Origin: Myxococcaceae bacterium
Lineage (GTDB): Bacteria > Myxococcota > UBA727 > JABDBI01
Assembly: GCA_016000045.1 (NCBI GenBank)
Contig: JAECQY010000002.1
Location: 95,777 to 159,776 of the forward strand
Reading direction: 5' to 3'
Length of the DNA stretch: 64,000 nucleotides
A program made the translations under genes and the position numbers. Shown here in pieces: positions 15,113-39,883 of the stretch; positions within the stretch are counted from its first letter, which is position 1, and every line of letters starts with the position of its first letter. The notes beneath the pieces were generated by a model, which worked only from the letters and a program-made list of their open reading frames with translations, did no database searches and had not been told where the DNA came from.

Positions 15113-16576
15113 ATGAATAAAATAAGTTGTCTTTCAGTCTTGGTTTTCTTAACTTCTGCCTTCGGTCATGCAGATGTTGCACTGCCTCGTCCAGCTTTTT
15201 TTCGCGATGGTTTGATTGGTTCGTCTGAAATCATCCGCTGGGGTTCGTCGGCCCTCATCTCAAAGATTGCCTTACTCGTTCAAAGCGGATTTGAGAACTC
15301 GGAGAAAATTAGAGAAGAAGCTGCTGTACGATCTAAGTTCTTAAAGCAGATCTTGAAGCATAAAAAATCATACGAAGACCTCGAAAAAGAGCGCATTCAA
15401 AAAATTAAAGAGCTTAGAAAAAAAATATGGCAGACCCGTTCTCATCTTCAACTTGATGAAGAAGAATCTTTAGGTGACATGCTGACCGAGCTATCAGAAC
15501 TCTTGGATAATCCTGCACCATCAGATTCTAACGAGGACGAGTCTCCTGAATTCGATCTCAATCCAAAATCTGTCAAAGGCTTATCTCCTTCTAATCATTT
15601 TATCATCCCAGGAATACGGATGGCGGCACCTAAAAAAAGCGGCGGCTCGGGTGGTGGTAAAAAGTCAGAAGTTAGAAAGGATAGCAGCGCTCAAGCTCAG
15701 ACTGAGACTGAGACTCAAACTGGAGTCACAGTCGTTTCGGCAGCTCAGCCATCCACACTAGCCCCTGCTTCGGGTTTTATACAGGTTTCTGGTCCCGCTC
15801 CCGTTCCCATGGAGCTTCAGACTGTTCTTAACCATATAATAAACGAAAATATCGCTTTAAAAAATGAAAATGCAGCTTTAAAAAATGAAAATACAGCTTT
15901 AAAAAAGGAAACTCAGGATCTTAGATTAGGACTACAACGCGAAACAGATCGCAGTGCCATTCATGAGCGTGATTTGCAGCTTGTGCGCAACGAGTATCGA
16001 ACTTTACTAGAAAGCTACGGGGTTCTTCAGGCCGAAGTAGCTCGATTAAGAACTGAAAACGAAGCATTAAGAATCGAAAACGAAGCATTGCGTCAAGATA
16101 ATAAGCAGCTAAAAGAGCGGCTCACCACCGCTGAAAGCCAGCTTCAAACTCTGCAATCTGAACTTCAAATTTTGAAGCAAAGATCCGACCAGCAACAATA
16201 CATGCTAGAAGTTGGGCAAGCACTGGGCTACATAAACGATGAGATTCGCAGAGTTTTTGACGATCCTGCAAGCCCAGGATTTCCAGGCATTCAAAGAATG
16301 GCTAGAAGAGATGAATTCCGAGGCGAGGAGTCCCGTATCTGGGCTGAGTTTCTTCGAGCACATCCTGGTGCAGATGATATGAGCTTTGCACGAGTTTTTG
16401 CGGAAATCATGGGCGACCGAGTTGGCGTAGCGCATCCTGGACGACGCGTAGATACCATGAGAGAAGAAGAATTATATCACCGTATTTTAACGATCAAACC
16501 GAATTTGGAAGAATCTTTTGTAAGAAAGTTTGTTGACTTTATCTTTACATTCCCTGTGCCTGATCAACGGCGTTAA
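15113..16576 (+). CDS. secreted Gly/Ser-rich and coiled-coil repeat protein
   Basis: 487 aa. Signal peptide, a 'KKSGGSGGGKKSE' linker, and heptad-like repeats 'NIALKNENAALKNENTALKKE' and 'ENEALRIENEALRQDN' that also repeat at the nucleotide level. Confidence 0.6.
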   Translation: MNKISCLSVLVFLTSAFGHADVALPRPAFFRDGLIGSSEIIRWGSSALISKIALLVQSGFENSEKIREEAAVRSKFLKQILKHKKSYEDLEKERIQKIKELRKKIWQTRSHLQLDEEESLGDMLTELSELLDNPAPSDSNEDESPEFDLNPKSVKGLSPSNHFIIPGIRMAAPKKSGGSGGGKKSEVRKDSSAQAQTETETQTGVTVVSAAQPSTLAPASGFIQVSGPAPVPMELQTVLNHIINENIALKNENAALKNENTALKKETQDLRLGLQRETDRSAIHERDLQLVRNEYRTLLESYGVLQAEVARLRTENEALRIENEALRQDNKQLKERLTTAESQLQTLQSELQILKQRSDQQQYMLEVGQALGYINDEIRRVFDDPASPGFPGIQRMARRDEFRGEESRIWAEFLRAHPGADDMSFARVFAEIMGDRVGVAHPGRRVDTMREEELYHRILTIKPNLEESFVRKFVDFIFTFPVPDQRR

Positions 16577-25358: not shown

Positions 25359-25519
25359 TTGTCTTGCTGCTCACCTTTTTTGTTGGAATCGTATTGACTT
25401 TTGTTGGCATCCTTCTTTTCACCTACAGTTTCCAACAAGGCGATTACGACACCCTCGATTCACTTTCGCTGCTGCCCCTCCAGGAGGAAGAACATGAAGC
25501 AGGTCAAGATCACCTATAA
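25355..25519 (+). CDS. ccoS: cbb3 oxidase maturation protein CcoS (small single-TM protein), not in the supplied ORF track
   Basis: The start ATG overlaps the ccoI stop (ATGA). Translation 'MIVLLLTFFVGIVLTFVGILLFTYSFQQGDYDTLDSLSLLPLQEEEHEAGQDHL' is one TM segment plus a 'GxxDxL(D/E)' acidic tail, as in CcoS/FixS. Confidence 0.6.
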   Translation: MIVLLLTFFVGIVLTFVGILLFTYSFQQGDYDTLDSLSLLPLQEEEHEAGQDHL

Positions 25520-27605
25520 CGACTCGGTCGTACGTCAATTTATTTGGGCATCCCTGTTCTTTGGTCTTGTGGGCATGCTGGTCGGTGTTTTAATCGCTGC
25601 ACAGCTTGCTGATCCGAGAGCAAGCTTTGGATTATCCTGGCTTTCTTTCGGAAGAATACGCCCACTTCATACCAACGCAGTGATTTTTGCTTTTGTAGGC
25701 AATATGCTATTCGCTGGCATTTATTATTCTACCCAACGTCTGCTCAAGGCTCGACTTGCCAGCGACTTTCTTTCCAGTCTTCATTTTTGGGGGTGGCAGG
25801 CGATCATTGTTGCCGCAGCCCTTACATTGCCTCTTGGAATCACGCAGTCTAAAGAATACGCTGAGCTTGAATGGCCCATTGATTTGGCTGTGGTTGCTAT
25901 CTGGGTTGTTTTTGGAATCAACTTTTTCTGGACTTTGGCCAAGCGCCGCGAGAAGCATCTATACGTTGCGATTTGGTTTTACATCAGCACCATTATCACC
26001 ATCGCAGTGCTTTATGTTGTCAACAATTTGGCCATACCCGTCTCATGGACTAAGAGCTACTCCGTATTTGCAGGCGTTCAAGATGCCTTGGTCCAGTGGT
26101 GGTATGGGCACAACGCGGTTGCCTTTTTTTTGACCACCCCGATTTTGGGTATCATGTACTATTTTATTCCCAAAGCGGCCGAAAGACCGGTCTACTCTTA
26201 TCGCCTTTCGATGATTCATTTTTGGTCGCTCATCTTTCTCTATATTTGGGCCGGACCTCATCACCTTCTCAATAGCGCTCTTCCAGACTGGACTCAGTCT
26301 ATGGGAATGCTCTTCTCAGTCATGCTTTGGGCACCCTCTTGGGGCGGAATGATCAATGGTCTTTTGACCCTTCGCGGAGCTTGGAATAAACTTCGAACCG
26401 ATCCTGTGTTAAAATTCTTTATTGCGGCAGTCACTTTCTACGGAATGTCCACATTGGAAGGGCCTCTTCTTTCTATCAAAAGTATTTCTGCTCTTGCGCA
26501 CTACACCGACTGGGTTGTGGGACATGTGCACAGCGGGGCACTCGGTTGGAATGGGTTCATGGCGGCGGGGATGTTTTATTGGCTCGTGCCAAGATTGTAT
26601 TCGCGAGAGCTTTACAGCAAAGCGGCTGCGGATTTTCATTTTTGGATCGCTACGTTTGGCATTGTTTTGTACGTCATGGCGATGTGGGTAGGAGGCATCA
26701 CCCAAAGCTTGATGTGGCGTGCCATGACACCTGAAGGCTCTTTGCTCTACCCCAATTTTGTTGAGACCCTGGTTGCGATTCGCCCCATGTATTGGATGCG
26801 CCTTGTGGGCGGCAGCCTTTATCTGTTCGGTTTCGTACTCATGATTTGGAATCTGCTGATGACCATGTCCTTGGGCAAAGCCACGGATACCACCGTCACC
26901 GTCCTTGAAACCTTCCCCGAAGCAGCTCCGCGCTCCAACCTGATTTTTTCACCTAACGATCACCGATTTTTAGAAGGCAGGCCTTTGCTGTTCACTGGCT
27001 TAGTCACCCTAGCCATTCTTGCGGGCGGAATCGCAGAGCTTATCCCCACTATTTTATCCGAAACTCAAGCGGTTGATGGAAAATGGCCCATCCGGCCTTA
27101 CACAGCGCTGGAGCTACACGGACGCGATATCTACGTTCGAGAAGGGTGTTACAATTGCCACAGTCAAATGATCCGCCCCTTCCAGGATGAAGAAATGCGC
27201 TACGGTGCTCATGCAAAATTAACGGACTTCATCTTTGACCACCCCTTTCAATGGGGAAGCAAACGGACAGGCCCAGATTTGCAGAGAGTCGGGAAAAAAT
27301 ATCCGAACATCTGGCATTTTTACCATATGCAGGATCCACGAGCTATTTCACCTGGCTCGAACATGCCAAGCTATGACTGGCTTTCGGAACAAAAAGTCGA
27401 TTTTTCTCTTAGCCCCATCCAAATGAACGCCATGAAACACGTTGGGGTTCCTTACTCGGAAGCGGAAGTTTTGAATGCTGAAATCTCGGCTCAAAGCGAT
27501 GCCAAAGCTTTGGCCAATGCGCTTCAAGAAGAAGGGGCTTCTTTAGACTATGATGCTGAAATGATTGCTTTGATTGCCTATCTGCAATCACTCGGAACTC
27601 GCTAA
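25494..27605 (+). CDS. ccoN: cbb3-type cytochrome c oxidase subunits I and II, fused CcoN-CcoO
   Basis: 'MKQVKITYNDSVVR' CcoN start, a 12-TM heme-copper core, then a TM anchor and a monoheme 'CYNCHSQ' CcoO domain in the same frame. I took the start at the internal Met of ORF 25401-27605. Confidence 0.9.
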   Translation: MKQVKITYNDSVVRQFIWASLFFGLVGMLVGVLIAAQLADPRASFGLSWLSFGRIRPLHTNAVIFAFVGNMLFAGIYYSTQRLLKARLASDFLSSLHFWGWQAIIVAAALTLPLGITQSKEYAELEWPIDLAVVAIWVVFGINFFWTLAKRREKHLYVAIWFYISTIITIAVLYVVNNLAIPVSWTKSYSVFAGVQDALVQWWYGHNAVAFFLTTPILGIMYYFIPKAAERPVYSYRLSMIHFWSLIFLYIWAGPHHLLNSALPDWTQSMGMLFSVMLWAPSWGGMINGLLTLRGAWNKLRTDPVLKFFIAAVTFYGMSTLEGPLLSIKSISALAHYTDWVVGHVHSGALGWNGFMAAGMFYWLVPRLYSRELYSKAAADFHFWIATFGIVLYVMAMWVGGITQSLMWRAMTPEGSLLYPNFVETLVAIRPMYWMRLVGGSLYLFGFVLMIWNLLMTMSLGKATDTTVTVLETFPEAAPRSNLIFSPNDHRFLEGRPLLFTGLVTLAILAGGIAELIPTILSETQAVDGKWPIRPYTALELHGRDIYVREGCYNCHSQMIRPFQDEEMRYGAHAKLTDFIFDHPFQWGSKRTGPDLQRVGKKYPNIWHFYHMQDPRAISPGSNMPSYDWLSEQKVDFSLSPIQMNAMKHVGVPYSEAEVLNAEISAQSDAKALANALQEEGASLDYDAEMIALIAYLQSLGTR

Positions 27606-27779: not shown

Positions 27780-28338
27780 TGAAACCGAACGCGATCAAGA
27801 ACGGGATCACGATTACGATGGCATCCGAGAATACAACAACCCACTTCCACGTTGGTGGTTGCTGAGCTTCTTCTCCACCGTCGTATTTACCTTCGCGTAT
27901 TGGGGATATTACCATGTTCTAAACCTGGGTATGTTCCCAGATCAAGCACTGGTGCATCAAAACCAAATGACCGCAGAGCTCAAAGCCGCTGCAGCAGGGC
28001 ATGTTGACAATGCGCAGCTGATTTCGATGAGCCAAGATCCAGATATCGTTGCTGCTGGAAAAATCGTTTTTTTTCAAGCCTGCGTGGCTTGCCATGGTGA
28101 TCGAGGCCAAGGAGGCATTGGGCCTAACCTGACCGACCGTTATTGGATGCACGGTTCTAGCCCCATGGAAATTCGACACATCATTTCCCATGGAGTCGTT
28201 GAAAAAGGCATGACAGCTTGGAAGTCGGTGCTTAGCGAGCAAAAAATCAACGAGTTAGTCGCGTTTATTTTGACCCTCAAGAACACTGCGATACCCGGTA
28301 AAGCACCTCAAGGGGTCTTAGACCATGAAAAGCCCTGA
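27772..28338 (+). CDS. ccoP: cbb3 oxidase cytochrome c subunit CcoP, short monoheme form
   Basis: 'MADETERDQERD...NPLPRWW' TM anchor and a single 'CVACHGDRGQGG' heme site. The start is an internal Met overlapping the ccoQ stop. Confidence 0.75.
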   Translation: MADETERDQERDHDYDGIREYNNPLPRWWLLSFFSTVVFTFAYWGYYHVLNLGMFPDQALVHQNQMTAELKAAAAGHVDNAQLISMSQDPDIVAAGKIVFFQACVACHGDRGQGGIGPNLTDRYWMHGSSPMEIRHIISHGVVEKGMTAWKSVLSEQKINELVAFILTLKNTAIPGKAPQGVLDHEKP

Positions 28339-29656
28339 CAAAAAGCCGAACCTGGATCGTCTTTTTATTTTGGATCATCGAGGAAGCCGAAAGTACGTCT
28401 ATCCCGCAGATGTCTCAGGGTTTTATCAGCGCATCAAATCGGTTTTATTGAGCCTTCTGATGCTGGTCTATTTTGGTCTGCCTTGGGTAAAAATCGCAGG
28501 ACGGCCTGCGATTTTAATCGATATCAAGGCACGCCATTTCTACCTCTTGGGCCAAGTGTTCAATGCGCAAGATTTCTTTCTCGCATTTTTCCTAGCTTCT
28601 GGAGCCGCTTTTTTTCTGATTGTTCTCACGGCTTTTGTGGGTCGAATTTGGTGTGGCTGGCTGTGTCCTCAGACGGTCTTTGTTGAAGGAGTATTTCGGC
28701 GAATCGAGCGGTGGATTGAAGGCCCTGCTCATCAGCGTCAACGTCTCGCTCAGGCTCCTTGGACTGCTTCGAAGATTGTTCAAAAATTCTCAAAACATAT
28801 TATTTATATTTTCATATCAATTTTTACAAACTATACATTTTTAAAATATTTTAACGAAAATAAAAATATTATATTATATTTTTTAAGCATTTTTATTTAT
28901 TTTAATTTCTATTGGTTTCGAGAGCAGTTTTGCGTTATTCTGTGCCCTTACGGGCGCATGCAATCGGCCTTGCAAGATCGAGACACCATCCATATCAACT
29001 ACGATTCCAAACGCGGCGAGACTCGAGGCAAAGCTCGAGATACGACGGCAGGAGACTGCGTCGATTGCGGCCGCTGCATCGCGGTCTGCCCAACCGGCAT
29101 CGATATTCGCAATGGCCTTCAAATGGAGTGCCTTGAGTGCGCGAATTGCATCGATGCCTGCAATGCGATCATGAACAAATTGGGTCGACCTCTTGGCTTG
29201 ATTCGATACGATTCGCTGCGTGGACTTGAAACCGGAAAAAGGCGTTTTTTACGACCACGCATGGTCGGCTATGCTTTGGCAGGGATCGCCGGGCTAGCAA
29301 TCGCAACGACTCTTTGGCTGAAACGCCCCCCTTTCAATGCAAATCTTCTCAGAGTTCAAGGCATTCCCTTTACCCTCGAGCAAGGAATCATTCGAAATCA
29401 ATTTATGATCCACTTAACCAATAAGAACAACCATTCAGCCGTTTTTCAGTTGCAGAATGTCTCTGAAAACCGGGTCCAGGTTATTCTACCGCTGCAGACC
29501 CTCTCGTTGCAACCGCTCCAAAGCTTTCAGACGCCCGTCATTGTCGAACTCCCGATAAAAGCCTATGTTCGAGGCATGAAAACCCATATTCGTGTTTCGG
29601 ATTCTGTTTCGGGCCAGTCGCAAGTTCTTCAAGGGACTTTAATAGGACCTCTCTGA
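28325..29656 (+). CDS. ccoG: cbb3 oxidase accessory 4Fe-4S ferredoxin-type membrane protein CcoG
   Basis: 'CVDCGRCIAVCPTGIDIR' and 'CLECANCIDAC' ferredoxin motifs, with N-terminal TM helices. Confidence 0.8.
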   Translation: MKSPDKKPNLDRLFILDHRGSRKYVYPADVSGFYQRIKSVLLSLLMLVYFGLPWVKIAGRPAILIDIKARHFYLLGQVFNAQDFFLAFFLASGAAFFLIVLTAFVGRIWCGWLCPQTVFVEGVFRRIERWIEGPAHQRQRLAQAPWTASKIVQKFSKHIIYIFISIFTNYTFLKYFNENKNIILYFLSIFIYFNFYWFREQFCVILCPYGRMQSALQDRDTIHINYDSKRGETRGKARDTTAGDCVDCGRCIAVCPTGIDIRNGLQMECLECANCIDACNAIMNKLGRPLGLIRYDSLRGLETGKRRFLRPRMVGYALAGIAGLAIATTLWLKRPPFNANLLRVQGIPFTLEQGIIRNQFMIHLTNKNNHSAVFQLQNVSENRVQVILPLQTLSLQPLQSFQTPVIVELPIKAYVRGMKTHIRVSDSVSGQSQVLQGTLIGPL

Positions 29657-30351
29657 TGTCGCCTAGCATTTACGCAGCGTATGGACAGCTCTTCAGTGTC
29701 GGGTTTATCTTCATCGGATTTCATTGCATTGGCATGTGCGGGCCGATCTTGTGTGGTTTACAGATAGGGCGTCAGCGATTTGGGCTTCTCTTTTATCAAC
29801 TGGGGAGAACTACGCTCTATATGATTTTTGGAGCCATCACGGGAGCTCTTGGAGCTGTCTTTGAAAAAACTTTTAGCGCAGCAGGGACTGTCATCAGCAT
29901 TGCTTTTGGTTGTTTGCTGATTGTGCAAGCAGGAAAAACCTATCGCTTCAAAAACACTCACCGCCTTGCTTCTAAATTAGCGATTTTACAACCCGATGAA
30001 TTCGGCCTGATACGACCTCTGTTCTTGGGGATGTGTTTGGCTTTTATGCCCTGCATGATTACCGTCTGGGCTCTCGGTATTGCAGCAACCACCTTATCTC
30101 CTCTACACGGTGCGCTCATCATGGCTTTATTGGTTCTCTTGACAACCCCTGCCCTGTGGATCTCCACCCGAATCCCGAATATCTTGCAACGTCTTCAAAA
30201 AATCGAGTTCTTGAAGCGACTTTCCCCAGCTCTTTTAGGCATTTCAGGAATTTGGATGATTTTAGTGGGTTTAGCCGGAGCAGGTATCTTGAATCACTGC
30301 CATGTTCATTTCCAACTCTTCGGGCAGCACTACATGATCATGTTTTTTTAA
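29656..30351 (+). CDS. DsbD_2/UreH-like family integral membrane protein (HCxxMCGP motif), cbb3-cluster associated
   Basis: 231 aa, 6 or more TM segments, with an 'HCIGMCGPILCGL' motif in TM1. The TGATG junction with ccoG suggests coupling. Confidence 0.45.
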   Translation: MSPSIYAAYGQLFSVGFIFIGFHCIGMCGPILCGLQIGRQRFGLLFYQLGRTTLYMIFGAITGALGAVFEKTFSAAGTVISIAFGCLLIVQAGKTYRFKNTHRLASKLAILQPDEFGLIRPLFLGMCLAFMPCMITVWALGIAATTLSPLHGALIMALLVLLTTPALWISTRIPNILQRLQKIEFLKRLSPALLGISGIWMILVGLAGAGILNHCHVHFQLFGQHYMIMFF

Positions 30352-36036: not shown

Positions 36037-36996
36037 TTGATACGTCCCATTTCTACCTCTATTGTCCTTGTTTTTGCACTATCCACAGACTTATTGGCTT
36101 GGCTAAAAGATCCTAGATCTGAAGTCGCCCGAATCAGCCGACAAATCCGAGACAGCGTTCGAGAAGTAAAACCTTTTTCGCTGGGCTCGTCTTCGGTGCC
36201 GCTGATTCGCACGAACAATAACTACATCGAGCAAATGAGCCAACGACTCAAACGCATCCAAGAGCTCCGGCTCGAGATTCACAGATTGCACCAGATAGGA
36301 AAAATGTCGGAGGCTCTAGAAGCCGAAGAAGAGCTCTTGCGCCTGATTGAGTTGGGTGCTTTGCCTGAGAAGTTGCAAAGAACAGAAGCTTGGAAGATTG
36401 GATTGGGCCTTAGCGAAATGCCGGGTGAACTATTTTTGCCTACGTCTGGGAAAAAGTATGGGGTACCAGAACTACGCTTGCTGCCCGGCACAGATGCACC
36501 ATCCGTTGAACCGAACCCTTCACCCGCGGATGTTGGCCAAGCTTCTCAAGCTGAACAAGAGGCTCAGGGCAAAGAAGCATCCATTGATGGCGCTATCCGT
36601 GTTGTTCGTACGCAAGCGATGTCTGTGGACCCACTCCGATCGGTAAGAAGGTCATATACAGGTCCACGTGAGCCCAGGAACATTACTGCTCTGAAATGGG
36701 ATTGCACCAATTTGGAAAAAATGACCTTTCAAGAAGCGCAAGCTTATGCCACAAGCCGTTTAGCGGAAGGATGGGAATTGCCAACCATTTGGGAGCTGGA
36801 AGCACTGTATCGACAGCAACACAGAGAGCTCGGAAACGATTGCAACGAAGCCTCGTATTGGTCTGAAACAGCAGTGACGGATGTGATTATCGGTGGTGCT
36901 TGTCATTGGGTCTTCGATTTTGAAGATGCCGATGTTTACGGTGGCAGCAATTTTAGCCACCATTTAGTTTGCTTAGTGCGGGATTTAGATGAGTGA
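36037..36996 (+). CDS. secreted DUF1566/Lcl C-terminal domain-like protein, paralog A
   Basis: Signal peptide, coiled region, and a C-terminal 'FQEAQAYATSRLAEGWELPTIWELEALY...YWSET...HLVCLVRD'. Confidence 0.55.
   Translation: MIRPISTSIVLVFALSTDLLAWLKDPRSEVARISRQIRDSVREVKPFSLGSSSVPLIRTNNNYIEQMSQRLKRIQELRLEIHRLHQIGKMSEALEAEEELLRLIELGALPEKLQRTEAWKIGLGLSEMPGELFLPTSGKKYGVPELRLLPGTDAPSVEPNPSPADVGQASQAEQEAQGKEASIDGAIRVVRTQAMSVDPLRSVRRSYTGPREPRNITALKWDCTNLEKMTFQEAQAYATSRLAEGWELPTIWELEALYRQQHRELGNDCNEASYWSETAVTDVIIGGACHWVFDFEDADVYGGSNFSHHLVCLVRDLDE
36175..36500. repeat. left arm of a ~330 bp inverted repeat, the conserved N-terminal coding region of the DUF1566 paralogs
   Basis: Reverse complement is near-identical to 39406-39733. 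For example, 'gggtgaactatttttgcctacgtctggg' here matches 'cccagacgtaggcaaaaatagttcaccc' there. Confidence 0.7.
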
Positions 36997-38863: not shown

Positions 38864-39883
38864 TCACAATACCTCCCGCACCAAACGTACTCGATACCCG
38901 ACGAAAACATCACCGACGCAGGCGATACCGTCTCTGAAATTGAAGGCCCAACAGAAACCAGCGTAGCCAACGACCGAAGTGTCTGACCAATACCAGGCTC
39001 CATCATCATCTTCTCCTAATACACTACGCTGCTGATACAACCCTTCTAATTCCCAAATTGTCGGCAATCGCCACCCTTCTCCGGAATGGCCACTCGCATA
39101 AGCCTCGGCTTCTTCGAAAGTCACTCTTCTCAAGCTTTTACGGCCCAATTCCCATTCCAGGGTGGGTAGATCTTTGAGCACACGAAAGCCTTGATACCAA
39201 TTCTCTAAACCTCTGAGCGGGTCTACTCGCATTATTTGAGTGCGAGCAACATGAGTAATGACCTGACTCGATACTCCTGTTGCGTGGACCCTTTGATTAA
39301 CTTGGGAGGCTTGAGAATGAACGGGTTCATTTGGACTCGAAGCTCTCGGCAGCGTTTGTTCGCCGCTCGTGGCTGAAGATTCGGGCTGAACTGCTGGTTC
39401 AATCGCGCCGGGAACCAAATATAATCCTGGTGCCTGATACTTCTCCCCAGACGTAGGCAAAAATAGTTCACCCGGCATTTCGCTAAGGCCCAATCCAATC
39501 TTCCAAGCTTCTGTGCTTTGCAACTTCTCAGGCAAAGCACCCAACTCGATGAGCCGCAAGAGCTCTTCTTCGGCTTCTAGAGCCTCTGAAATTTTCCCTA
39601 TTTGGCGCAACCTGTGAATCTCGAATCGGAGTTCTTGCATGCGCTTAAGCCGTTGACTCATTTGTTCGACGTAGTTATTGCCCATGCGAATGAGCGGTAC
39701 CCAAGCAGAACCGAGCGAAAAGGGCTCCACTGCTCGAATGCTATCTCGGATTCGTATCCCAATTCCAGCGATTTCAGACTCTGCATCTTGCAGCCAAGTG
39801 GGACAGTGCTGAAGCAAGCTCCAAGCCAATAAGTTGGGAGATAGGACAAAAATAAAGAAAATAGGAGCAAAAACCTGATTCAT
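38864..39883 (-). CDS. secreted DUF1566/Lcl C-terminal domain-like protein, paralog B
   Basis: 'VTFEEAEAYASGHSGEGWRLPTIWELEGLY...YWSDT...YRVRLVRE'. The N-terminal 100 aa are about 85% identical to paralog A. Confidence 0.55.
   Translation of the reverse strand: MNQVFAPIFFIFVLSPNLLAWSLLQHCPTWLQDAESEIAGIGIRIRDSIRAVEPFSLGSAWVPLIRMGNNYVEQMSQRLKRMQELRFEIHRLRQIGKISEALEAEEELLRLIELGALPEKLQSTEAWKIGLGLSEMPGELFLPTSGEKYQAPGLYLVPGAIEPAVQPESSATSGEQTLPRASSPNEPVHSQASQVNQRVHATGVSSQVITHVARTQIMRVDPLRGLENWYQGFRVLKDLPTLEWELGRKSLRRVTFEEAEAYASGHSGEGWRLPTIWELEGLYQQRSVLGEDDDGAWYWSDTSVVGYAGFCWAFNFRDGIACVGDVFVGYRVRLVREVL
39406..39733. repeat. right arm of the inverted repeat
   Basis: See left arm. It encodes 'AVEPFSLGSAWVPLIR...LPTSGEKY', against 'EVKPFSLGSSSVPLIR...LPTSGKKY' in paralog A. 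Confidence 0.7.

Follow-up and report, generated by a model that had tools for sequence, protein, structure and literature searches.

How does a housekeeping gene for respiratory assembly, lying within a genome of otherwise unexceptional base composition, come to contain well over a hundred base pairs of DNA which are almost devoid of G and C? The question is raised by ccoG as found in the window, i.e., in the whole 64-kb stretch of DNA analysed here, which has a GC content of 46.9%. A preliminary description of this DNA had pointed to a strongly AT-rich stretch of about 135 bp inside of that gene, and this was confirmed: The maximal-scoring AT segment, at 28782-28913, is 132 bp in length at 9.8% GC (A54 C11 G2 T65), which is more than 7 SD under the window mean, with G nearly absent from the coding strand (2 in 132 nt). 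Sliding-window GC, using 135-bp windows across the 64 kb (mean 0.469, sd 0.049), has its minimum, 0.104, at this patch, and only there does it fall below 0.25. As scored as AT tracts, the patch reaches 80 over 132 bp, with the runner-up in the window at 30 over 38 bp, and it is indeed the largest AT tract seen within the 64 kb plus approximately 595 kb of comparison loci from approximately 85 genomes. That no second such break exists in the window, as also had been claimed, holds. A fully intragenic low-GC spot is present at only one other place, 15823-15916 (24% GC), where a coiled-coil repeat rich in Asn, Lys and Glu is encoded. The patch is carried by one lineage, and it is known from metagenome assemblies alone.

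The gene had been named as ccoG, with the patch at a TM helix pair and the reading frame preserved, all of which proved correct. The gene and its two flanking Cys motifs are as follows.

28325-29656, + strand: ccoG (fixG/rdxA), 443 aa, cbb3-oxidase accessory protein, cupric reductase family (TIGR02745; Pfam Fer4_5, Fer4_18, FixG_C)
28652-28669, + strand: Cys motif C110-G-W-L-C114-P115, upstream of the patch and of normal GC (invariant alignment columns)
28919-28948, + strand: Cys motif R199-E-Q-F-C203-x3-C207-P208, downstream of the patch (invariant columns)

The frame is open throughout the 443-aa ORF, patch included. The match to TIGR02745 is 391.5 bits versus a cutoff of 316.7, with residues 34-426 falling on model positions 1-417 of 435, and the C-terminal, Ig-like PF11614 (FixG_C) domain scores 40.5 bits versus a cutoff of 25.6. 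Fer4_18 is matched at E=9e-38, and its 4Fe-4S cysteines, C245, C248, C251 and C255-P along with C269, C272, C275 and C279, are all invariant, where invariance of Cys motifs is as judged in a 14-sequence alignment. As assigned full length and above the trusted cutoff, the gene is a bona fide ccoG. It follows, in order, a ccoI-like P-type ATPase gene, a 54-aa ORF (listed as ccoS), a ccoNO fusion, ccoQ and ccoP, and a DsbD_2 gene comes after it. A cupric reductase activity of CcoG is attributed to Marckmann et al. 2019 in the summary supplied by PMC7558416.

Between the two CxxxCP motifs (C110GWLC114P and C203VILC207P) hydropathy of the product displays two hydrophobic peaks, at residue 166 and at residues 188-190. 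The AT-rich stretch, that is, is CcoG's own TM hairpin, located between both Cys motifs, and its parts can be described as follows.

28778-28918, + strand: recoded TM hairpin, codons V152-F198 (in-register homology to six relatives of the same clade)
28796-28852, + strand: first hairpin helix, approximately H158-F176, hydrophobic peak at residue 166 (Kyte-Doolittle; AlphaFold helix 148-176)
28853-28867, + strand: polar turn N177-E-N-K-N181, which in relatives is A/G/N/T-A-S-N (alignment)
28868-28918, + strand: second hairpin helix, approximately I182-F198, peak at residues 188-190, ending in the conserved YFNFxWF (Kyte-Doolittle; AlphaFold helix 184-206)

Homology of this segment to the hairpins of the six relatives is seen in 19-25 identities over 46-47 residues, versus 3.6-5.1 upon shuffling (P<1e-5), with retention of the conserved K154, K157-H158, F172-L173, Y175-F176 and YFNF. 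At 443 aa versus 445 aa in the closest relatives, and with a hairpin that aligns with theirs column for column, the protein has not gained a segment, which rules out the in-frame insertion that had been proposed earlier. The degenerate mobile insertion that also had been suggested, and unrelated DNA generally, are ruled out by the homology itself; the patch in addition has no Rfam match and no exact match among viral contigs. The AlphaFold model, based on the 14-sequence alignment, is of only moderate confidence, with a mean pLDDT of 65.9. The predicted first helix is the better-modelled portion of the hairpin, with 10-residue block means of 84, 83 and 73 over residues 141-170, the second helix and Fe-S domain are low, and the C-terminus is beta-rich, with strands from residue 337 to 438 and block means of 81-91 over residues 321-440. 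The model thus supports a helix-turn-helix as predicted structure, while it cannot judge packing. Because the hairpin is in frame and in register, with both hydrophobic cores kept, CcoG as so rewritten very probably is still functional.

The alteration of the hairpin is seen at all three codon positions. Hairpin codons together are 12.1% GC versus 49.6% for the rest of ccoG, with GC1, GC2 and GC3 of 0.09, 0.13 and 0.15 (gene GC3, for comparison, being 0.50). The peptide had been described as consisting solely of Ile, Phe, Tyr, Asn and Lys, which is mistaken, as FYINK residues make up 34 of 47, alongside S, T, L, H, Q, E, V and W; GARP residues number zero. Synonymous choice is equally displaced. 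A/T-ending codons number 40 of 47 versus 26.8 expected, Leu is TTA in all three cases, Thr is ACA in both, and three of eleven Ile are ATA, codons for which genome usage is 0.15, 0.19 and 0.07, respectively. Codons that the genome uses rarely account for ten of the 47, the host-rare codons being TTA, ATA, ACA and TCA. Third codon positions, taken by themselves, define a segment nearly coincident with the hairpin.

28775-28906, + strand: low-GC3 segment, codons 151-194, with GC3 of 5/44 (third codon positions alone)

The associated change-point has an LLR of 13.8 versus at most 10.0 over 300 permutations, and synonymous composition is normal again within about two codons at both ends (GC3 of 8/13 over codons 199-211). 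Since both amino-acid replacement, toward Phe, Tyr, Ile, Asn and Lys, and synonymous choice have been pushed to A/T, the force involved acted on nucleotides rather than on protein. Back-translation of the hairpin peptide using window codon usage gives 22.7-23.6% GC, and none of 20,000 back-translations came down to the observed 12.1%, the lowest being 13.5%. The resulting z is -5.0 for the window versus -2.0 to +2.5 for the six relatives. Relatives possess hairpins of 23-34% GC, two being at 43-44%, and these milder dips are fully explained by the composition of their own peptides. A lineage feature common to the clade, as had been raised as what could undo the original observation, is therefore ruled out at the nucleotide level by back-translation of the six relatives, none of which displays a nucleotide-level AT excess at the hairpin.

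Divergence is similarly local. Identity to relatives is 40-54% in the patch versus 64-66% in the rest of the gene, while for all other pairs within the clade hairpin identity is close to overall identity. Clade-invariant residues are retained at 15 of 22 hairpin positions versus 203 of 229 elsewhere (P=0.014), and a one-codon deletion relative to the clade is present after Y185, four codons downstream of the polar turn. The window's gene is the deepest branch of the clade, at approximately 35% amino-acid divergence, and its flanks lie equally far from each of the relatives (0.64-0.66). For the block itself, the subclade of P2/P4/P6/P7 is slightly nearer (0.47-0.54) than P3/P5 (0.40), although the states shared are AT-favoured residues.

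Might the patch be, in origin, nothing special? Ordinary amino-acid composition combined with relaxed constraint, i.e., T-rich TM segments and a weakly constrained hairpin drifting to AT bias, does account for approximately two-thirds of the dip, as the back-translations indicate, and for the whole of the dips of relatives. That same exercise, however, leaves the final third, including the excess of AT-ending codons, beyond the reach of 20,000 trials. Other TM helices of this same CcoG are 0.43-0.61 GC, and the GC difference between hairpin and remaining gene, which is -0.034 ± 0.040 over 81 other CcoG genes, amounts to -0.38 in the window (z=-9.1). Together, these two results rule out a generic property of CcoG or of TM helices. 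Passive drift to a neutral baseline is ruled out by an intergenic GC of 0.44 and a four-fold-site GC of 0.48, and even given a baseline of 0.35, finding no more than 17 G/C among 141 sites has a probability of 5e-10; composition as sole explanation is scarcely credible. A localized mutational process (hypermutation or persistent local bias, e.g., cytosine deamination of exposed single strands), with purifying selection sparing essential residues, would accommodate the sharp edges of the patch, its paucity of G, and the strong direction of change, with GC-to-AT versus AT-to-GC ratios of 2.8-15.7 inside but 0.63-0.84 in the rest of the gene. Two-strand transitions nevertheless are not what is seen: A has doubled (54 versus 22-35 in relatives), T is unchanged (70 versus 59-75), and C has halved. 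Many codons, moreover, require two to three changes including transversions, such as Ser TCN to Lys AAA, Ala GCN to Asn AAT, and Val GTN to Thr ACA, though with divergence from relatives saturated, individual changes cannot be polarized. As we also know of no bacterial process confining mutation to approximately 130 bp with codon-sharp edges, we view this explanation as improbable. The chimera suggested by the preliminary description, a join with reads from an AT-rich organism of the same metagenome, gains some plausibility from the source being a metagenome-assembled genome. A Logan contig that is 100% identical over 18,015 bp probably derives from the same read set rather than from an independent sample. 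Two different assemblers nonetheless gave identical DNA, the protein is recorded under two NCBI accessions (MBH1989114.1 and MBH2006076.1), and the patch is in frame, homologous, and bordered on both sides by native sequence. An artefact would need two graph switches 132 bp apart via shared k-mers of at least 21-31 nt, of which the left junction has no clade-conserved example, and were the flanks instead common to a co-occurring strain, then the patch would be a real allele. An assembly chimera therefore is unlikely, and to an artefact of any such kind we assign very little probability.

Two origins deserve greater weight. The most likely, which we favour tentatively and at somewhat less than an even chance, is short-tract allelic replacement, giving rise to a mosaic gene. 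Here approximately 130-140 bp would have been copied in, as a single replacement event, from the ccoG of a much more AT-rich, unsampled member of the short-hairpin CcoG clade. Junctions would lie in conserved DNA beside the variable hairpin, with K-x-x-K-H to the left and YFNFxWF-REQ to the right, and the replacement would have been tolerated because the hairpin may serve chiefly as a hydrophobic spacer, one positioning both Cys motifs on the same membrane face. One event would account jointly for edges that are sharp at synonymous as well as non-synonymous sites (GC3 of 5/44 inside and approximately 0.5 outside), for amino-acid and codon usage that are both in the style of an AT-rich genome, for excess divergence limited to the patch, and for the one-codon indel within it. 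The failure of passive explanations, given intergenic, four-fold-site, and other TM-helix GC, points the same way. As the patch is ccoG-derived and of the short-hairpin type, any donor therefore is a clade member, and an unsampled one is plausible because sampling of the clade is very sparse: 5.8 billion protein clusters yielded 7 genes, and JGI contigs yielded none. A replacement from an AT-rich source, as was among the origins first proposed, is viable so long as that source is homologous, though searches turned up no donor. An exhaustive phmmer search of 1.84 billion representatives, with the hairpin region as query, reached no more than 42% identity across the whole query, or 50% over residues 12-66, with none of the matches FYINK-rich. 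Among 135 CcoG proteins no comparable hairpin was seen (FYINK mean 13.0 ± 2.6, next highest 24), and all short-hairpin CcoG proteins are of ordinary whole-protein composition. A clade-specific DNA pattern built on clade geometry, with C110-G-W-L-C114-P115 as its left anchor and itself validated, had zero matches in JGI metagenomes, and a scan of those metagenomes for the hairpin peptide returned one ordinary CcoG at 32% identity. A hairpin of 12% GC would imply a donor genome of approximately 30% GC or less, even allowing for the clade's AT-leaning hairpin, and homologous recombination over approximately 130 bp between genomes so different is mechanistically hard, with the left junction offering microhomology only. 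Incongruence between patch and flank phylogenies is weak and can be explained by compositional convergence.

The alternative to import, which was absent from the origins offered by the preliminary description, is recoding in situ: Over a long branch every tolerable site would go to A/T under local selection for AT-rich nucleic acid, with a DNA- or RNA-level element laid over the coding sequence where constraint is lowest. This is a real possibility, if an unlikely one. The deepest branch of the clade, at its approximately 35% divergence, supplies ample time for substitutions, hairpin FYINK counts rise from 13 in the wider family through 17-24 in clade relatives to 34 in the window, and the most AT-rich local tract of L004, as of L002, likewise falls in the hairpin (76 bp at 13% GC, z=-2.0, for L004), which hints at an in-situ tendency and counts to that extent against import. 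No native intergenic tract, moreover, is as AT-rich as the patch, a level beyond the reach of passive drift, and no donor is present in very large databases. Candidate elements would include DNA that melts easily or is protein bound, an intragenic promoter for 3' ccoG plus DsbD_2, or an unstructured, A/U-rich RNA processing or pausing site with clustered rare codons. The ten rare codons of the hairpin also count in favour of recoding. The promoter candidate would correspond to the following.

28823-28880, + strand: three overlapping sigma-70-like hexamer pairs, 9/12 matches each (consensus matches only)

Such hexamers are expected by chance in DNA of this sort, however, with 6 matches over the whole region versus 3.5 ± 1.9 in shuffles. 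A structured RNA receives no support (fold z=-0.67, not significant), and a search of Rfam with the patch gave no match. We know of no class of bacterial element that requires approximately 130 bp at 10% GC, and the genome's own promoter and intergenic AT tracts are only 15-57 bp. Selection also would have overridden seven clade-invariant residues and yet would have stopped exactly at the hairpin ends, even at flanking synonymous sites which were free to change, and the six relatives have no significant nucleotide-level signal, two indeed being opposite (z=+1.7 and +2.5). More specifically, the patch might be a sequence of dual use which arose where it now stands: an element of DNA or RNA needing extreme A/T over approximately 130 bp, imposed by selection on the part of an essential-pathway gene that tolerates it best, with the membrane hairpin rewritten in Phe/Tyr/Ile/Asn/Lys codons as a consequence. 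We consider this reading unlikely, though by no means remote.

How might such a patch be compared with better known systems? Mosaic pbp and penA alleles of Streptococcus and Neisseria are products of short-tract interspecies recombination, and the ccoG block resembles them in being sharply bounded and in frame, in differing from its flanks in divergence and composition, and in having its junctions in conserved sequence. Classical mosaics, however, have identifiable donors, lengths of hundreds to thousands of bp, similar GC in donor and recipient, and a selective driver such as antibiotics, whereas the ccoG block is approximately 132 bp, spans a gap of about 38 GC points, and comes with no known donor or advantage. 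In AT-rich genomes nucleotide bias drives protein composition genome-wide, seen as the FYMINK/GARP shift together with A/T-ending codons. The patch is similar in its FYINK and GARP counts and in its TTA, ATA, ACA and TCA codons, but here the shift occupies only 47 codons of one gene, within a 47% GC genome whose other genes are normal. The downstream regulatory element of E. coli proV and the downstream silencer of bgl are intragenic AT-rich DNA bound by nucleoid-associated proteins, and they supply a parallel in terms of AT-rich DNA inside coding sequence, under joint protein- and DNA-level constraint. Those elements nonetheless are far less extreme, with protein not visibly recoded, while the ccoG patch has no evident binding protein, motif, or regulatory logic and is lacking from relatives. 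Fungal RIP and deaminase hypermutation likewise generate AT islands with sharp borders through local, directional change from G/C to A/T, but those are restricted to C-to-T and G-to-A transitions and in most cases leave the gene inactive; in ccoG the frame, key residues and hydrophobicity are kept, and changes are not transition-like. DGRs depend on a reverse transcriptase plus a template repeat close by, and vary adenine positions. Their variable repeats share with the patch an in-frame cassette of approximately 100-150 bp, with sharp edges, that is overwritten at the nucleotide level, although a CcoG TM hairpin is no ligand-binding variable domain. Neither relaxed blastn nor tblastn found a second copy of the patch in the 64 kb, and there is no ORF of at least 250 aa with YxDD in the 64 kb and no reverse transcriptase among Pfam-annotated neighbours, which rules out a DGR as well as ectopic conversion from within the window. 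A search of the literature yielded no relevant example of a similar AT patch within a gene.

The patch is a curious anomaly of one lineage. If imported, then it would be a mosaic tract of unusually small size and extreme composition within a housekeeping gene for respiratory assembly, indicating that tracts of approximately 130 bp can move between genomes of very different GC, and also that the TM3-TM4 hairpin of CcoG tolerates near-complete rewriting, which would be useful for structure-function work on this cupric reductase. If instead it evolved in place, then a so far unrecognized selective force or element at the nucleotide level would be indicated within a coding region. Should a dual-use element be involved, bacteria would provide here a clear instance in which protein sequence, clade-invariant residues included, gave way to a non-coding constraint. 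With either origin it represents a clean natural experiment: 32 of 47 hairpin residues differ from at least one of the six relatives, 7 of the 22 residues which are invariant among those relatives have changed, and the Cys motifs and hydrophobic cores are kept.

The AT-rich patch lies within ccoG, specifically within codons V152-F198 (28778-28918), which encode a hairpin of two transmembrane (TM) helices. Maximal-segment analysis delimits a core of 132 bp, 28782-28913, with base counts of A54, C11, G2, and T65, i.e., 9.8% GC in a window that is 46.9% GC overall. The preliminary description of an AT-rich in-frame stretch at 28778-28915 matches the sequence, which indeed is more extreme than had been stated. 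Among 135-bp sliding windows over the 64 kb (mean GC 0.469, sd 0.049), the minimum of 0.104 is found at the patch, more than 7 SD under the mean, and nowhere else in the window is a value below 0.25 seen. The patch is also the top AT tract of the window, scoring 80 over 132 bp versus 30 over 38 bp for the second best, with native intergenic or promoter AT tracts spanning only 15-57 bp. It is the top tract as well versus ~595 kb of loci from ~85 other genomes, a ranking which leaves aside two ~100-bp zero-GC tracts, presumably masked N runs, in loci of 65-67% GC. The genes and other features relevant to these analyses are as follows.

15113-16576, forward strand: ORF for a coiled-coil protein of 487 aa, its N-terminus resembling a signal peptide; 15823-15916 within it (24% GC) is the sole other wholly intragenic low-GC spot, encoding tandem ENxALKNEN heptad-like repeats, its GC judged ordinary as Asn, Lys, and Glu codons account for the composition
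25401-27605, forward strand: ccoN-ccoO fusion, a single 734-aa ORF (Pfam domains COX1, residues 43-472, and FixO, residues 521-733)
28325-29656, forward strand: ccoG (CcoG/FixG), 443 aa, TIGR02745 at 391.5 bits (cutoff 316.7)
28912-29136, forward strand: out-of-frame, Arg-rich ORF of 74 aa, with a TTG start that coincides exactly with the patch's 3' edge; lacks a Shine-Dalgarno sequence and is judged spurious as a gene
29656-30351, forward strand: DsbD_2 membrane-protein gene (PF13386, 92.5 bits), directly 3' of ccoG, stop and start codons overlapping
36037-36996, forward strand, and 38864-39883, reverse strand: convergent, paralogous Lcl_C-domain genes (PF07603, near the gathering threshold), the 5' regions of which are ~81% identical as DNA, inverted (36098-36339 versus 39798-39557)

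The literature (PMC7558416) describes CcoG as a cupric reductase of the membrane that carries two 4Fe-4S clusters. The window protein possesses the Pfam domains Fer4_5, Fer4_18, and FixG_C, and by alignment none of its Cys ligands is lost and both CxxxCP motifs are preserved; with its recoded hairpin it probably is still functional. Its gene is found in a cbb3-oxidase cluster, in the order ccoI-like ATPase, 54-aa ORF, ccoN-ccoO fusion, ccoQ, ccoP, ccoG, and DsbD_2 protein. In classical ccoGHIS clusters it is ccoH that follows ccoG. Of the annotated neighbours of the window ccoG, none was recognizable as ccoH, with ccoI and a ccoS-sized ORF located upstream of ccoNO. The CcoN-CcoO fusion is present also, at 748-749 aa, in four contigs carrying related ccoG genes (L002, L003, L087, and L088).

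The patch is genuine, and encodes CcoG's own TM hairpin, recoded in frame and in register. Identity to the window CcoG is 62-65% for the six closest relatives (proteins P0002-P0007), of which the five that are full length consist of 445 aa versus 443 aa. The AT-rich stretch aligns in every column with their hairpin, located between C110xxxC114P and REQxC203xxxC207P, and the sole indel is a one-codon deletion after Y185, four codons beyond the turn. An in-frame insertion, as had been suggested, is therefore excluded. Nor is the stretch unrelated DNA or a degenerate mobile element, which in-register homology rules out: each relative shares 19-25 of 46-47 residues with it, versus 3.6-5.1 in composition-preserving shuffles, none of 100,000 of which attained the observed identity. 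Residues kept are K154, K157-H158, Y161, F172-L173, Y175-F176, L187-S188, and Y192-F193-N194-F195. A helix-pair position had been proposed as well, and hydropathy agrees, with peaks at residues ~166 and ~189, the same places as in relatives. AlphaFold predicts helices at 148-176 and 184-206 separated by a turn, at moderate confidence only (mean pLDDT 65.9, 14 sequences).

The window protein and these relatives together form a clade of short-hairpin CcoGs, in which CPQ and REQ are 83-90 residues apart (full-length members, 89-90) versus ~105 in 78 other CcoG genes; that is, the clade lacks a ~15-residue loop between helices. It is very rare (7 genes in 5.8 billion protein clusters, zero in JGI metagenome contigs), its loci being the window (28325-29656), L002, L003, L004, L086, L087, and L088; two more short-hairpin CcoGs, P0127 and P0121, come from the representative library. 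The window is the deepest branch, 64-66% identical to all others, which mutually are 70-95% identical, and in the window alone has the hairpin (40-54% identity) diverged more than the remaining protein. Clade-invariant residues are retained at 15/22 hairpin positions versus 203/229 elsewhere (P=0.014). P0007 (L088, 3001-4182), annotated 52 residues shorter at its N-terminus, has a 7-residue deletion just upstream of the hairpin (WTASKIV region), and the hairpin's surroundings look to be indel-prone in this clade.

Hairpin minus remaining-gene GC is -0.034 +/- 0.040 over the equivalent 47 codons of 81 other CcoG genes (species-representative genomes), versus -0.38 in the window (regression z=-9.1), with the next outliers being the window's own clade. 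Relatives' hairpins are 0.24-0.34 GC in four cases and 0.43-0.44 in two, and the top AT tract is located in the hairpin also in L004 and L002, a weak clade tendency toward AT-rich hairpins. In L004 (Myxococcaceae bacterium ELA443) the second helix, 2469-2544, is a tract of 76 bp and 13% GC, more AT-rich than any other on its 5.4-kb contig though marginal upon back-translation (z -2.0), while the two top tracts of L002, 6476-6492 and 6575-6593, both are within the hairpin. Relatives' dips nevertheless are wholly accounted for by their own peptides (back-translation z -2.0 to +2.5, versus -5.0 for the window), so at the nucleotide level close relatives do not carry the same AT-rich stretch.

This recoding was driven at the nucleotide level. 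Hairpin GC1/GC2/GC3, i.e., GC by codon position, is 0.09/0.13/0.15 versus 0.57/0.42/0.50 across the remaining gene. When the peptide is back-translated using codon frequencies of the window (20,000 trials), GC is 22.7 +/- 2.4%, at minimum 13.5%, versus the 12.1% observed, and there are 40 A/T-ending codons out of 47 versus 26.8 expected. Genome-rare codons include TTA for 3/3 Leu (share 0.15), ACA for 2/2 Thr (0.19), TCA for 2/3 Ser (0.12), and ATA for 3/11 Ile (0.07). Phe, Tyr, Ile, Asn, and Lys make up 34 of 47 residues, with zero Gly, Ala, Arg, or Pro; CcoG proteins on average have 13.0 +/- 2.6 of these five residues here (n=135), the second highest count being 24. GC-to-AT relative to AT-to-GC differences versus each clade member are 2.8-15.7 in the hairpin and 0.63-0.84 in the remaining gene. 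A change-point based solely on third positions is placed at codons 151-194 (GC3 5/44; LLR 13.8 versus a permutation maximum of 10.0), with 8 of the 13 codons directly downstream (199-211) GC-ending.

How this came about can be considered in terms of several explanations. A purely compositional one is scarcely credible, and relaxed constraint combined with mutational bias is excluded: the protein's other TM helices are 0.43-0.61 GC, crude intergenic GC is 0.44 (minimum 0.35 in regions of at least 100 bp), four-fold-site GC is 0.48, and given a 0.35 baseline the probability of finding at most 17 G/C among 141 sites is 5e-10, such that passive drift cannot make the patch. An assembly or sequencing artefact, including the chimera previously raised, is unlikely. 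The same protein is found on three contigs and has two NCBI accessions, MBH1989114.1 and MBH2006076.1. Over 18,015 bp the window is matched at 100% identity by the Logan assembly of SRR12691405, that is, the same population as seen by a different assembler; a chimera furthermore would require two graph switches 132 bp apart via shared k-mers, while also supplying an in-frame homologous hairpin. A local mutational process would fit the directionality of the changes but not their base-change spectrum, and is improbable.

Selection in situ for a nucleic-acid element rich in A/T is possible, if doubtful. The clade's mild AT tendency is consistent with it, as is failure to find a donor, but no element of such a kind is known, relatives lack the nucleotide-level signal, and edges match the hairpin's ends exactly, even at free synonymous sites. 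No match to the patch was found in Rfam, and its RNA fold is not significant. We tentatively favour instead a single short-tract import, in which an unsampled, far more AT-rich member of the short-hairpin clade would have donated a short ccoG tract in one event. This would account for the largest number of features together, as sharp edges at synonymous sites, alien codon usage, excess divergence, and the indel would all be covered by that one event. It is mechanistically demanding, however, and the searches yielded no donor. An exhaustive phmmer search with the hairpin region (66 aa) as query, among 1.84 billion representatives, returned 51 hits (best full-span identity 42%), with no hairpin similarly rich in those five residues among hits examined across the hairpin. 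Scanning JGI contigs with the hairpin peptide yielded just one ordinary CcoG (32% identity). A DNA pattern of the clade's geometry, which matches all full-length genes of the clade on file but 0/80 outgroup loci, had no match in JGI metagenomes. There was no exact match to the patch in viral contigs, nor was a second copy, paralogue, or reverse transcriptase found within the 64-kb window.

From among the interpretations originally listed, it is replacement, as homologous replacement, that stands, now beside in-situ recoding, with the others dropped or minor. The patch can be classed as an intragenic compositional mosaic, known from a single lineage and only from metagenome assemblies.
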